A stretch of DNA of 5,820 nucleotides from a virus. Taxonomy: Duplodnaviria > Heunggongvirae > Uroviricota > Caudoviricetes. The stretch lies in the IMG/VR virus record IMGVR_UViG_2802429250_000001; one strand, written 5' to 3'. The position numbers and the translations under genes are program-made. How positions within the stretch are numbered: position 1 is the first letter of the stretch; the number at the start of each line of letters is the position of its first letter. Below are positions 2,400 through 5,820 of this stretch, in pieces. The notes below the pieces were generated by a model. The model saw only the letters and a list, made by a program, of their open reading frames with translations. It searched no databases and was not told the origin of the DNA.

Positions 2400-2690
2400 A
2401 TGAAAAGGAAAAATTCTGGCTTTACTGCCAGCGGTCTCTCTCGGCCTGAAATCAGACACGGAGATATTTACCGCGACACCAGACGTGGGGGACGAGTGGT
2501 TATTCGTCACGTTACGCCAGGCAATATCACCTACCGCCGTGAGGCTTACGAATATGACTGCGTAATGCCGCGCCGTCAGTTTGAGCGTGATTTTATTCTG
2601 GTTGAAAACAAACAACAGGCAGTGGCAAGACGTGCAGCCACGAATATTAAAAAAATCCGGGCAATGTTGGTTGCGGGAGGTAAGAAGTGA
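2400..2690 (+). CDS. Hypothetical basic (Arg/Lys-rich) protein, ORF6 (96 aa), translationally coupled to the replication gene
   Basis: ATG 2400-2402 with AGGAA (2386-2390) upstream; stop TGA 2688-2690 overlaps the GTG start of the next gene (GTGA). The translated product is visibly rich in Arg and Lys. Confidence 0.55.
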   Translation: MKRKNSGFTASGLSRPEIRHGDIYRDTRRGGRVVIRHVTPGNITYRREAYEYDCVMPRRQFERDFILVENKQQAVARRAATNIKKIRAMLVAGGKK

Positions 2691-4486
2691 AAAACGCACC
2701 GAATTTAAAATATCAGCCGAAGGATAAATTCACCGAGGTAATCATTTTTGCCGGGACGGATGCTTACGCCCATGCTCAACACTGGATTGAAAGCGAAGGA
2801 CGAAAACACGGCGATAACGTGCCTCCTGTTTACCTGGGGCCAAAGCAACTGGCAGACCTGGCGAATATCCGCATTGTCGACGATGAACGCCGCTTTGCGC
2901 GTGTCTATCTCGCGGGGGAGATAGAGCCAATCCAGATCAATGCTATTGCTGAAAAGCTGGCGCTGGCTGGTGTACAGGACGCGAAATTATACAAAGGTAT
3001 CACCGACCGGGAGCCGGAAAACTGGCGCGACTACCTGCAACGGATCCGCGAACAGGCAGAGAGTGGGGAAGTTTCAGCGATGAAATTAGCCACAAAAAAT
3101 ATTGACCTATCTAGGCCAGCACTAAATCAGATGGGAGCCAGCCAGAGAGGGGAAGTGTTACTTGAATATTATGGAAGAGCACTGGCTATAAATGATGATT
3201 CTGATGTAGTTCACCATTACAACGGAATTGTCTGGGTGCCTGTATCTGATAAGGAACTCCAGCGGGCTATGGCGCAGATTTTTATTGATGCGGAAATCAG
3301 CTATTCGCAGAACGCCATCAAATCGGCGGTCGATACCATGAAGTTAAGTTTGCCCGTAATGGGGAATACAGCCCGTAACCTGATTGGATTCAGTAACGGG
3401 GTATTTGATACCAGAACTGGTAATTTTCGGGAGCATAACAAAAACGACTGGTTGTTAATTGCCAGTGAATTACCTTTCAGCCCACCAGCAGAGGGGGAAA
3501 CGCTGGCAACACATGCGCCGAATTTCTGGAAGTGGTTGCGCCGTTCGGTGGCTGAGAATGACCGCAAGGCAGATCGCGTACTGGCGGCGTTATTCATGGT
3601 GCTGGCGAATCGGTACGACTGGCAGTTATTTCTTGAGGTAACGGGGCCGGGTGGAAGCGGTAAAAGCGTAATGGCGGAGATTTGCACTATGCTGGCGGGT
3701 AAGGCCAACACGGTATCGGCAAGCATGAAGGCGCTGGAAGATGCCAGGGAACGTGCGTTAGTGGTTGGCTTTTCGCTGATTATCATGCCGGATATGACCC
3801 GTTACGCTGGTGATGGTGCAGGGATTAAGGCCATTACAGGCGGTGATAAGGTGGCAATCGACCCGAAACATAAAGCCCCCTACTCAACACGCATTCAGGC
3901 GGTCGTGCTGGCGGTGAACAATAACGCCATGTCATTCAGTGACCGCAGCGGTGGGATATCACGTCGTCGGGTAATATTCAATTTTTCGGAAGTTGTACCG
4001 GAGAACGAACGTGACCCTATGCTGGCTGAAAAAATAGAAGGAGAGCTGGCGGTAGTGATTCGCCACCTGCTTACACGCTTTTCTGACCAGGACGAAGCTA
4101 AACGCCTGCTATATGAGCAGCAGAAATCAGAAGAAGCCCTGGTGATAAAACGCGAGGGCGATTCGCTGGTGGACTTCTGCGGCTATCTCATGTCGTCGGT
4201 AATGTGCGATGGCCTGTTAGTGGGTAATGCTGAAATTATTCCGTTCAGCCCGCGCAGGTATCTCTATCACGCCTATCTGGCGTATATGAGGGCACACGGA
4301 TTCGGTAAGCCCGTAACACTGACACGCTTCGGTAAGGATATGCCAGGGGCAATGGCGGAATACGGCAGGGAGTATATGAAACGGAAAACGAAGCATGGCT
4401 TGCGTTCAAACGTGATACTGACAGAGGATTCAGAAGACTGGATGCCCTCATGTGCATCGGTCACAAATGACGATGGCAAAAATTAA
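2687..4486 (+). CDS. Replication initiator/helicase, phage P4 alpha family (D5_N-like region + SF3 helicase P-loop + C-terminal region), 599 aa
   Basis: GTG start 2687-2689 with GGGAGG (2675-2680) at 6-nt spacing. Walker A GPGGSGKS at aa 320-327 (nt 3644-3667); Walker B-like SLIIMPD; SF3 motif C-like VLAVNNN; D5_N-like stretch GFSNGVFDTRTGNFREH. Iterons of the P4 alpha-binding type lie immediately downstream. Confidence 0.85.
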   Translation: MKNAPNLKYQPKDKFTEVIIFAGTDAYAHAQHWIESEGRKHGDNVPPVYLGPKQLADLANIRIVDDERRFARVYLAGEIEPIQINAIAEKLALAGVQDAKLYKGITDREPENWRDYLQRIREQAESGEVSAMKLATKNIDLSRPALNQMGASQRGEVLLEYYGRALAINDDSDVVHHYNGIVWVPVSDKELQRAMAQIFIDAEISYSQNAIKSAVDTMKLSLPVMGNTARNLIGFSNGVFDTRTGNFREHNKNDWLLIASELPFSPPAEGETLATHAPNFWKWLRRSVAENDRKADRVLAALFMVLANRYDWQLFLEVTGPGGSGKSVMAEICTMLAGKANTVSASMKALEDARERALVVGFSLIIMPDMTRYAGDGAGIKAITGGDKVAIDPKHKAPYSTRIQAVVLAVNNNAMSFSDRSGGISRRRVIFNFSEVVPENERDPMLAEKIEGELAVVIRHLLTRFSDQDEAKRLLYEQQKSEEALVIKREGDSLVDFCGYLMSSVMCDGLLVGNAEIIPFSPRRYLYHAYLAYMRAHGFGKPVTLTRFGKDMPGAMAEYGREYMKRKTKHGLRSNVILTEDSEDWMPSCASVTNDDGKN

Positions 4487-4500
4487 ACTTATGGAATAAC

Positions 4501-4654
4501 TGTTCATCAAACTATTCACTGTTCACCTTTTTGATTATTTGTTGAGCTTTAAGGGTGAACAGTGGTGAACAGTTGGTGAATAGTTTTTGTGAAACTGTTC
4601 ACCCCTTAACACAATGAATTAAAAGGAGAAACGGAAAAGGTGAACAGGTGAAGG
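4501..4654. repeat. Iteron cluster, P4 ori/crr type: about 8 copies of TGTTCACC / GGTGAACA in both orientations
   Basis: TGTTCATC 4501-4508; TGTTCACC 4520-4527 and 4596-4603; GGTGAACA 4554-4561, 4564-4571 and 4639-4646; GGTGAATA 4575-4582; GGTGAAGG 4647-4654. The three copies at 4554-4582 are spaced 10-11 bp apart. Confidence 0.75.
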
Positions 4655-4685
4655 GTTAAAATGCAAAAATTTTATTTTATTGCTG
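4655..4685. other. AT-rich tract flanking the iterons (candidate DNA-unwinding element)
   Basis: aagggttaaaatgcaaaaattttattttattg, immediately after the last iteron. Confidence 0.4.
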
Positions 4686-4741
4686 TGAGGTAAAGGCTGT
4701 GACAACGAAACACACAAAAAACACAATCTCACGCCCTTGAT

Positions 4742-4942
4742 TTGACAGAACACAGGCTGAGGGGGGCGATAAAAATTATCGACCGCAACGCCGGGGAAGG
4801 ATACGCGAAAGTACATCCCGAACTGATAAGCGCATTCATGACAACGGCAGCGGCAAACTTTGCCACGCTGACAGAACGGGAGATTGCCGAAGCTGAACAG
4901 GTGACAATCATCAACGTTAAAACCGGAGAGCAAACAGCATGA
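4742..4942 (+). CDS. Hypothetical small protein or decayed gene fragment (no canonical start)
   Basis: The track ORF starts at TTG 4742 with no Shine-Dalgarno; the internal ATG 4838 also lacks one. The frame is open from 4703. Translation (GAIKIIDRNAGEGYAKVHPELISAF...) looks protein-like, but start support is poor. Confidence 0.25.
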   Translation: MTEHRLRGAIKIIDRNAGEGYAKVHPELISAFMTTAAANFATLTEREIAEAEQVTIINVKTGEQTA

Positions 4943-5157
4943 CGGTACAAATATCCGCTTACGGGCGGCAGGTGGCTGATCTGCACTCAAAAACCACCAG
5001 CAAGGGAACACCAATGGCAATGGCGAGTATGGCAGTTCCCCTTCCGCGCAGCCAGGCAGATGACGGAACGGCGAAACGTGGCTGGTCTGGTTATCGCAGA
5101 CAGCGTAATCAGTGCGCGAACGGTGCGGCTGGGCGGCAAAAAAGGCCAGCAGAGTGA
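4939..5157 (+). CDS. Hypothetical small basic protein (72 aa)
   Basis: ATG 4939-4941 preceded by GGAGAG (4926-4931) at 7-nt spacing; overlaps the upstream ORF stop (ATGA). Product is low-complexity and basic, so it may be a gene remnant. Confidence 0.35.
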   Translation: MTVQISAYGRQVADLHSKTTSKGTPMAMASMAVPLPRSQADDGTAKRGWSGYRRQRNQCANGAAGRQKRPAE

Positions 5158-5234
5158 TCCGTACGGTGATGGAATACCATTTGGGGATATCGTATAAATA
5201 AACCTTAGCATAGCGTTATATAAAGGTGATATAT

Positions 5235-5561
5235 ATGATTTACTTTGTGAAGAAATTTAGTGAAATAGTGGAAAAGTCTTCTGGTGCTTTGTCTTTCGGG
5301 ATTATACAGAGTCTCGTTATGATAGGTATAATTGCAAATTTATCTTCTCAAACAGGTGTAAGGTATTTCATCTTGCTTACTATTGCATTTATTGCAACTA
5401 TAAGTATTGCATTATGTATGTTGAGTATAATATCTGTTATTAACGAAGTGACAGGAAAACATAAGTACATGAAGTTTTTGTTTGGGATTCTGCTGTACCC
5501 TTCTTTTATTGGTGTTATTCTTTCTGCGTACCTGAGTATTAAAGCACTAATAGTCAGTTAA
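5235..5561 (+). CDS. Small integral membrane protein (about 108 aa, three predicted transmembrane helices) in an AT-rich islet
   Basis: ATG 5235-5237 with AAAGGTGA (5222-5229) upstream, preferred over the track's GTG 5226. Three hydrophobic stretches: GALSFGIIQSLVMIGIIANL, VRYFILLTIAFIATISIALCMLSIISVI, FLFGILLYPSFIGVILSAYLSI. A 50-nt sample counted 30% G+C against about 50% for the rest of the window. TATAAA at 5193-5198 is a candidate -10. Confidence 0.6.
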   Translation: MIYFVKKFSEIVEKSSGALSFGIIQSLVMIGIIANLSSQTGVRYFILLTIAFIATISIALCMLSIISVINEVTGKHKYMKFLFGILLYPSFIGVILSAYLSIKALIVS

Positions 5562-5587
5562 TTATCTGGGTAATAAGCAATAAAGAA

Positions 5588-5601
5588 ATTTCTATAGAAA
5601 T
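5588..5601. repeat. Perfect 14-bp palindrome ATTTCTATAGAAAT
   Basis: Read directly; it lies between the membrane-protein stop (5559-5561) and the next + strand start (5641). Confidence 0.3.
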
Positions 5602-5640
5602 AAGCCATCAAAAGGAACGACGATAATACGGATAATATCG

Positions 5641-5820
5641 ATGAAAAGTACACATGGAAAAGCTGACCATCAACAGAAATTACGGTATGCCACAAAAATG
5701 GTACAGGAGACGCAACAGCAGGATAAAACCACATCGGCATATAAAGTGATGCCCGGTAATCAGAACGCGCAGCAGAAGCCCACAGGGGCGACACCGTGGC
5801 GGCATATGACCAAACGCCAG
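5641..5820 (+). CDS. 5' part of a hypothetical gene that runs off the right edge of the window
   Basis: The frame is open from 5584 to the window end. First ATG at 5641 (MKSTHGKADHQQKLRYATKMVQETQQQDKTTSAYKVMPGNQNAQQKPTGATPWRHMTKRQ...); alternative ATGs at 5698 and 5749. Absent from the ORF track because it has no stop in the window. Shine-Dalgarno is weak. Confidence 0.35.
   Translation, partial: MKSTHGKADHQQKLRYATKMVQETQQQDKTTSAYKVMPGNQNAQQKPTGATPWRHMTKRQ

Follow-up and report, generated by a model that had tools for sequence, protein, structure and literature searches.

The 5820-nucleotide stretch of DNA held in the IMG/VR virus record IMGVR_UViG_2802429250_000001 (Caudoviricetes), here referred to as the window, raises the question of which kind of mobile element encodes the helicase-like initiator and the adjoining repeats at bases 2687-4685, and of how such an element would be replicated. 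A reading made from the letters of the window alone (the sequence-only reading) had taken this segment for a P4-type replication module, likely to replicate on its own. In the analysis described here, bases 2687-4685 are very probably the replication module of a Gram-negative phage-inducible chromosomal island (PICI) of the EcCICFT073 type, a kind of module which has been described and experimentally examined since 2018 and of which the present copy is an ordinary, well-supported further member. The direct observations comprise homology, domain content, iteron statistics, the alignment to ori and crr of phage P4, the covariation of the iteron word with a segment of the protein, and synteny.

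The initiator and its iterons

The replication gene (rep, termed 'pri-rep' in the PICI literature) and the parts of its product, Rep, were delineated as follows.

2687..4486 (+): rep, encoding a P4-alpha-like SF3 helicase and origin-binding initiator of 599 amino acids
2674..2678 (+): Shine-Dalgarno-like GGAGG, 8 nt upstream of the GTG start, from reading of the sequence
2687..3070 (+): N-terminal domain, amino acids 1-128, alpha/beta fold, without a Pfam family or recognisable primase motifs
3152..3541 (+): D5_N domain, amino acids 156-285 (Pfam PF08706, E=1.5e-12)
3641..3967 (+): SF3 (AAA+) ATPase core, Pfam DUF5906, amino acids 319-427
3644-3667 (+): Walker A, GPGGSGKS, amino acids 320-327, identical in P4 alpha
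3776-3793 (+): Walker B, LIIMPD, conserved with P4 alpha
3905-3925 (+): motif C, VLAVNNN, conserved with P4 alpha
3953-3973 (+): arginine-finger region, GISRRRV, conserved with P4 alpha, starting within the SF3 core and extending 6 nt beyond it
4157..4447 (+): C-terminal origin-binding domain, amino acids 491-587, homologue of the solved P4 alpha domain (PDB 1KA8, E=1.6e-23; Pox_D5)
4373..4414 (+): specificity segment YMKRKTKHGLRSNV, amino acids 563-576, whose sequence class follows the iteron word among 27 relatives

The start codon of rep was considered well placed because the N-terminus of the protein, MKNAPNLK, agrees with the first residues of its homologues. The D5_N-like and SF3 motifs that the sequence-only reading had recognised in the 599-residue protein were borne out by Pfam, which assigned D5_N, DUF5906 and Pox_D5 (the last at amino acids 490-585), and by the presence of Walker A, Walker B, motif C and the arginine finger. 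The comparison with P4 alpha which that reading had put forward gave 50% identity over 455 residues with a single gap (Rep amino acids 141-594 against alpha 322-776), in addition to the matches to D5_N, Pox_D5 and 1KA8; judged by sequence, Rep is a true relative of P4 alpha. Residues 563-576 probably form the beta-hairpin wing of the winged helix, as judged from canonical winged-helix topology and the homology to 1KA8; a single-sequence AlphaFold2 model of the C-terminal domain had a pLDDT of 35 and so provided no check of this assignment.

The exact octamer TGTTCACC was found six times in the window compared with an expectation of 0.20, a count reached in none of 200 shuffles, and five of the six copies fall within 4520-4646. 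With degenerate copies included, nine octamers in both orientations (five exact, four degenerate) occupy 4501-4654, starting 15 bp past the rep stop codon, where the sequence-only reading had counted about eight; this number is far above chance. They begin at 4501+ (1 mismatch), 4513+ (2), 4520+, 4554-, 4564-, 4575- (1), 4596+, 4639- and 4647- (2), and the three octamers that had been described as lying 10-11 bp apart, as well as the AT-rich tract after them, were recovered at 4554, 4564 and 4575 and at 4656-4684, respectively. The region is predicted to be the replication origin and is organised as listed below.

4499..4685 (no strand): predicted replication origin, comprising the iteron cluster and AT-rich tracts, 25-40% GC compared with ~50% in the flanking genes
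4501..4527 (+): left iteron set, TGTTCATC (4501), TATTCACT (4513) and TGTTCACC (4520)
4528..4550 (no strand): AT-rich spacer separating the opposed iteron sets
4554..4582 (-): tandem iteron triple at 4554, 4564 and 4575 (the last being TATTCACC), with spacings of 10 and 11 bp, corresponding to the P4 ori copies at 9310, 9320 and 9331
4596..4603 (+): lone inverted iteron, the equivalent of P4 ori 9353
4639..4654 (-): the iterons GGTGAACA and GGTGAAGG as a pair; the purine-rich stretch ahead of them has 92% identity to a P4 crr unit
4656..4684 (no strand): most AT-rich tract (18/20 A/T), candidate unwinding element, in the position of the A/T run past the last P4 ori iteron

The sixth exact copy of TGTTCACC, at 3913-3920 (-), was not taken as an iteron: it lies within the codons of the conserved motif C (VLAVNNN) of rep and was regarded as a coding coincidence. 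The copy is conserved in the related island of E. coli APEC IMT5155. No second octamer cluster was found in the window. A search of 4487-4745 returned no DnaA boxes, IHF consensus or GATC sites, and the absence of DnaA boxes and GATC sites gives no indication that DnaA or Dam controls initiation. A terminator scan between rep and the iterons was negative, and two promoter-like matches at 4674-4727 were weak (9/12 matches).

In the GenBank record of P4, TGTTCACC is annotated as the 'ori type 1 repeat' and occurs both in ori (9310-9413) and in crr (4291-4590), the latter directly following the alpha gene. Window bases 4553-4621 could be aligned to P4 ori 9308-9378 with 55/69 identical positions (z=17 against shuffles), and bases 4598-4652 to a crr unit, in the orientation of alpha, with 49/53 identical positions (z=17). 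The order, orientation and spacing of the window iterons (4554-, 4564-, 4575-, 4596+, 4639-, 4647-) mirror those of P4 ori (9310-, 9320-, 9331-, 9353+, 9396-, 9406-), and each of the two arrays is followed, past its last iteron, by an A/T run. Statements on P4 rest on the GenBank annotation, the PDB entry, one sentence of PMC6092414 and general knowledge.

Relatives were assembled as 23 loci from other Enterobacterales genomes together with P4, vB_KppS-Ant, the IMT5155 island and EcCICFT073, the plasmid NZ_CP148328.1 being checked separately. In 27 relatives, the stop codon is directly followed by a cluster of 8-bp repeats in AT-rich DNA (32-43% GC); these relatives are made up of 22 of the 23 genome loci, IMT5155, vB_KppS-Ant, EcCICFT073, the plasmid and, for P4, crr. 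The exception is an Erwinia rhapontici locus (L026) with a full-length P4-like alpha of 773 amino acids and no iterons directly past the stop. The iteron words of the relatives fall into the classes GGTGAACA, GGTAGACA, GGTGGAGA, GG(C/T)GGACA and GGTAGATA, and each class is paired with its own sequence at amino acids 563-576, the only segment that tracks the word across the 27 relatives. In an E. ruysiae locus (L004), the helicase region is 96% identical to that of the window, the C-terminal domain only 72%, and the iterons are TGTCTACC; in L025, the C-terminal domain is that of L018 and L020 except for the stretch at 563-576, and the iterons are GGTGGAGA in place of GGTGAACA. This covariation provides the strongest in-silico support for the view that Rep reads the repeats downstream of its own gene.

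Initiation would be expected to proceed as follows. Once the island had been induced and excised, the C-terminal domain would bind the TGTTCACC iterons starting 15 bp past its own stop codon, and the opposed iteron sets (three pointing right, three left at helical-turn spacing, one right and two left) would place helicase hexamers around the AT-rich stretches, where the DNA would melt, the SF3 helicase would load itself and the host replisome would copy the circle.

Relationship to EcCICFT073 and phage P4

The window was aligned to the island of E. coli APEC IMT5155 with 96.8% identity across 90% of the window length. The IMT5155 island is inserted beside tRNA-Thr and proA and carries a P4-type integrase, an AlpA (PF05930) regulator and PerC; int and alpA lie outside the window, and their presence was read from this island. 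Genes within the window follow the PICI order (int, alpA, a rightward operon with rep-ori at its end and accessory genes such as perC, with neither a lysis nor a tail module of a phage), namely a YlcI/YnfO-like gene, an Icd-like gene, DUF4222, rep and the remnant of a gene for a single-stranded DNA-binding protein (SSB), and the sid, delta, psu and epsilon genes of P4 are missing from the element. The two neighbouring genes to which reference is made below are the following.

543-887 (leftward): YlcI/YnfO-like gene
2400..2690 (+): DUF4222 open reading frame, the final small gene ahead of rep (PF13973, E=1.4e-19)

The DUF4222 gene occupies the same position in EcCICFT073 and IMT5155. Its TGA stop codon overlaps the GTG start of rep (GTGA), which suggests translational coupling, and rep would be the final gene of a rightward, translationally coupled operon comprising the Icd-like gene, small open reading frames, DUF4222 and rep.

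The origin in these islands was reported to be the region immediately 3' of the initiator gene, in which two iteron sets flank an AT-rich region, and the rep-ori segment of EcCICFT073 sustained a temperature-sensitive plasmid; the rep mutant gave no colonies and deletion of ori led to significantly lower colony numbers (Fillol-Salom et al., 2018, ISME J; PMC6092414). Island coordinates for EcCICFT073 were taken from the supplement of the same paper. The gene order there is int, alpA, a leftward YlcI/YnfO-like gene, an Icd-like gene, small open reading frames, DUF4222, a 584-amino acid 'DNA primase family protein', a 290-bp intergenic region, a hypothetical gene, SSB and PerC. The EcCICFT073 protein (Pri-Rep) has the same Pfam content as Rep and is 43% identical to it over 591 aligned residues, the N-terminal domain included. 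EcCICFT073 and the window thus have in common the gene order, the architecture of the initiator with its unusual N-terminal domain, and an origin immediately 3' of rep in which iteron sets surround AT-rich DNA. They differ in the iteron word, which is T(G/A)TCTACC in EcCICFT073 and TGTTCACC in the window, with a corresponding difference in the specificity segment, and the helicase and C-terminal domain of the window resemble P4 alpha (50% identity) more closely than they do EcCICFT073 Pri-Rep (43%).

Rep shares with P4 alpha the D5_N domain, the SF3 helicase and a C-terminal origin-binding domain of the 1KA8 type, and the window shares with P4 ori the identical iteron word and the arrangement of a triple at 10/11 bp, one inverted copy, two tandem copies and an A/T run. 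However, P4 alpha possesses a Zn-ribbon and Toprim primase, both of which are missing from Rep, and P4 has its ori and crr 4.5 kb apart, with crr made up of two 120-bp repeats, whereas the window has one composite cluster right after the gene and, unlike P4, no terminator between gene and site. The PICI gene order without sid, delta, psu and epsilon is a further difference from P4. On these sequence features the element is an EcCICFT073-type PICI rather than P4: it shows all PICI features that could be checked and lacks two features of P4 (the primase domain and the bipartite ori/crr), while its helicase, origin-binding part and iterons are of the P4 kind. The assignment as a P4-type module was therefore retained for the helicase, the origin-binding domain and the iteron word, and replaced for the element as a whole, which is of the EcCICFT073 type, has no Zn-ribbon/Toprim primase and carries a single composite cluster. 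The Rep-ori systems of SaPIs follow a common logic, in that an island-encoded, self-loading helicase initiator has its iteron origin immediately 3' of the gene. However, the SaPI5 primase-helicase (PDB 7OLA) shows weak similarity in the ATPase core (E=2.8e-10) and none detectable outside the core, and SaPIs have other N-terminal and DNA-binding domains and a Gram-positive host lineage.

The prediction that the element replicates on its own holds insofar as it encodes its own initiator and origin. However, a PICI has no plasmid state, and its replication begins only once AlpA has brought about induction (PMC6092414). Among the sequences of an E. coli assembly, a complete PICI was found as a circular 'plasmid' of 10,790 bp (NZ_CP148328.1; L030), with int, AlpA, YlcI/YnfO-like, Icd-like and DUF4222 genes, a Rep 84% identical to that of the window, nine TGTTCACC copies directly past rep and a prohead protease/capsid fusion. 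The record probably represents an island that was excised and then captured in episomal form, and the circle is in keeping with an excised element able to replicate, or at least to persist. The segment comprising the C-terminal domain and origin of the window class was present in 595 of 5426 complete E. coli genomes (~11%), almost always on the chromosome. One window match (H39) falls within the island of ABU 83972 (4152946-4166644), which is entered as 'PICI?' in the supplement of PMC6092414.

Further observations were made elsewhere in the window. Four occurrences of TGTGATT(CAG) and its complement AATCACA were read at 865-950, between the YlcI/YnfO-like gene (543-887, leftward) and the Icd-like operon (rightward); with the adjoining TTGACC hexamer they resemble an operator array in a divergent promoter region. 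At ~5200-5700 the GC content is 32% compared with ~50%, and a 111-amino acid open reading frame (5226-5561) with hydrophobic stretches has no Pfam match; this part is probably a foreign insert or accessory gene. Long overlapping open reading frames (31-1401 on the + strand, 4619-5020 on the - strand and others) were set aside as artefacts, since annotated genes, or the intergenic origin in relatives, occupy the same bases. An Rfam scan of the window matched no family.

The N-terminal domain and priming

RefSeq labels the rep gene only, as 'DNA primase family protein', and no primase domain was detectable. In P4 alpha, Zn_Ribbon_Prim is found at amino acids 30-66 and Toprim_3 at 210-299, neither of which was detected in the window Rep at E<=1, and hhalign of the first 148 residues of Rep against alpha amino acids 1-321 returned a probability of 1.4%. 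The place of the Zn-ribbon and Toprim is taken by the 128-residue N-terminal domain. A Foldseek search of a model of this domain against the PDB gave no significant match, and a profile search against PDB sequences gave chance-level matches only. The domain family has few members (135 representatives at E<=0.001 in a search of 1.84 billion proteins); in nearly all matches listed the domain stands at the N-terminus, and its fusion partners among them are D5_N/SF3, AAA_25, VapE-like or DUF927 ATPases. N-termini are interchangeable within the Rep family, with a Zn-ribbon and Toprim in P4 and L026, Toprim alone in L012, the window type, and a fourth, unannotated type of ~130 amino acids with the motif SDALFSCVYxWVNGH in L013-L025.

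A canonical primase in cis is not required, because EcCICFT073 Pri-Rep, which has the architecture of the window protein, replicates a plasmid in DH5alpha. Priming is probably supplied by the host, since no recognisable primase (no Zn-ribbon, no Pfam Toprim) was found in Rep; alternatively, the N-terminal domain may itself provide or recruit priming. A broader proposal, which is put forward tentatively and is rather doubtful as a whole, combines replication cross-talk between P4 and PICIs through their common iteron word with an N-terminal domain that would be an undescribed TOPRIM-derived module, priming or recruiting the host primase. It draws on the use of the exact P4 iteron word by this PICI lineage, with near-identical specificity segments (KRKTKHGLRSN compared with KRHTKQGIQTN in P4), and on the finding that the N-terminal domain fills the usual primase-domain slot in at least four replicative ATPase families of mobile elements (D5/SF3, AAA_25, VapE-like and DUF927). 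If this were true, P4 alpha and Rep might fire or titrate each other's origins, giving cross-talk or incompatibility between otherwise unrelated satellite families in common hosts.

Alternative explanations and significance

Several points weigh against the assignment of bases 2687-4685 as a working EcCICFT073-type replication module. Rep scored 97.2 bits against NCBIfam TIGR01613 (phage/plasmid primase, P4 family, C-terminal), for which the cut-off is 108.7, and is thus a clear relative that stays under the curated line. Binding by Rep, melting, hexamer loading and the source of the primer are all inferred, as are binding and firing for the present allele, and the domain searches identified no primase in Rep. 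The window origin is without a 74-bp unit (two direct and one inverted iteron) found in IMT5155 and vB_KppS-Ant, which may lower its efficiency, and the island may be partly decayed because the SSB-like gene downstream is truncated.

The last two points bear on the alternative that survives best, in which the module is what it is described to be and the present copy is a decaying relic that no longer fires. The 74-bp unit was compared over window 4487-4530, L003 16454-16570 and L002 11690-11800, and the end points of the deletion fall in the direct repeat AACTGTTCATCA. All sampled relatives have kept the unit: 11/11 full-length matches sampled from the 595 E. coli genomes span ~520 bp for a 446-bp query, and the best match, at 99.8% identity, carries it too. 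The gene adjacent to the origin (4939-5157, +) is 67% identical to the EcCICFT073 single-stranded DNA-binding protein over its first 45 residues and then diverges, and its sequence is that of an SSB-like gene which has been truncated or has undergone a frameshift; a frameshift is annotated in the IMT5155 homologue. The low-GC insert at ~5200-5700 follows. However, the rep reading frame is intact with all ATPase motifs present, and the origin still has nine iterons, its two AT-rich tracts and the entire ori-like core, whereas P4 ori itself has only six type 1 repeats. Loss of function in this copy is accordingly regarded as unlikely.

A second alternative, that the cluster is a crr-like accessory site and the true origin of the island lies outside the window, is suggested by P4, in which the region directly downstream of alpha is crr rather than ori, the latter being 4.5 kb away, and by the right half of the window cluster, which is 92% identical to a crr unit. 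The P4-like alpha of Erwinia (L026) is likewise flanked by TGTTCACC clusters at 187-272 and 6643-6738, ~1.8 kb upstream and 2.1 kb downstream of the gene, split like P4 ori and crr. However, the left half of the window cluster matches the core of P4 ori, including the 10/11-bp triple and the terminal A/T run, and in EcCICFT073 rep and the region 3' of it sufficed (PMC6092414). Complete relatives were also inspected: in the IMT5155 island together with its flanks (12 kb to either side), in the whole genome of vB_KppS-Ant (a 16.5-kb induced element with capsid, portal and small-terminase genes and a replication gene 75% identical to rep) and in the 10.8-kb circular PICI record, octamers cluster only after rep, and the sole further copy, in IMT5155 as in the circular record, is a lone octamer within the coding sequence of rep. 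The islands thus appear to rely on one composite site for what P4 divides between ori and crr, which argues against the window cluster being a mere crr-like helper site and makes an origin elsewhere very unlikely.

Iterons of many plasmids have dual replication and regulatory roles, and with no terminator between rep and the cluster, transcription of the rep operon runs into the repeats, yet the least probable alternative of all is that they serve mainly as a regulatory array (a Rep-bound block of downstream read-through, or pairing of copies by handcuffing for copy-number control), as the cluster has the layout and sequence of the proven P4 ori and the position of the proven EcCICFT073 ori, AT-rich tracts between opposed iterons would have no obvious role in such an array, and the two roles are not mutually exclusive.

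With the segment assigned as an EcCICFT073-type replication module, nothing found here overturns current understanding, and the residual interest lies in the specificity code, the iteron word common with P4 and the uncharacterised N-terminal domain. The table of iteron classes, taken together with the protein segment that tracks it, constitutes a ready specificity code for swap experiments, and the common iteron word suggests a testable interaction of two satellite families. The primase-less architecture is also that of the active EcCICFT073 protein, and the manner in which such islands are primed thereby becomes a question of its own. Finally, the analysis locates an unannotated origin in a type of PICI that about one in nine of the sequenced E. 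coli genomes carries.

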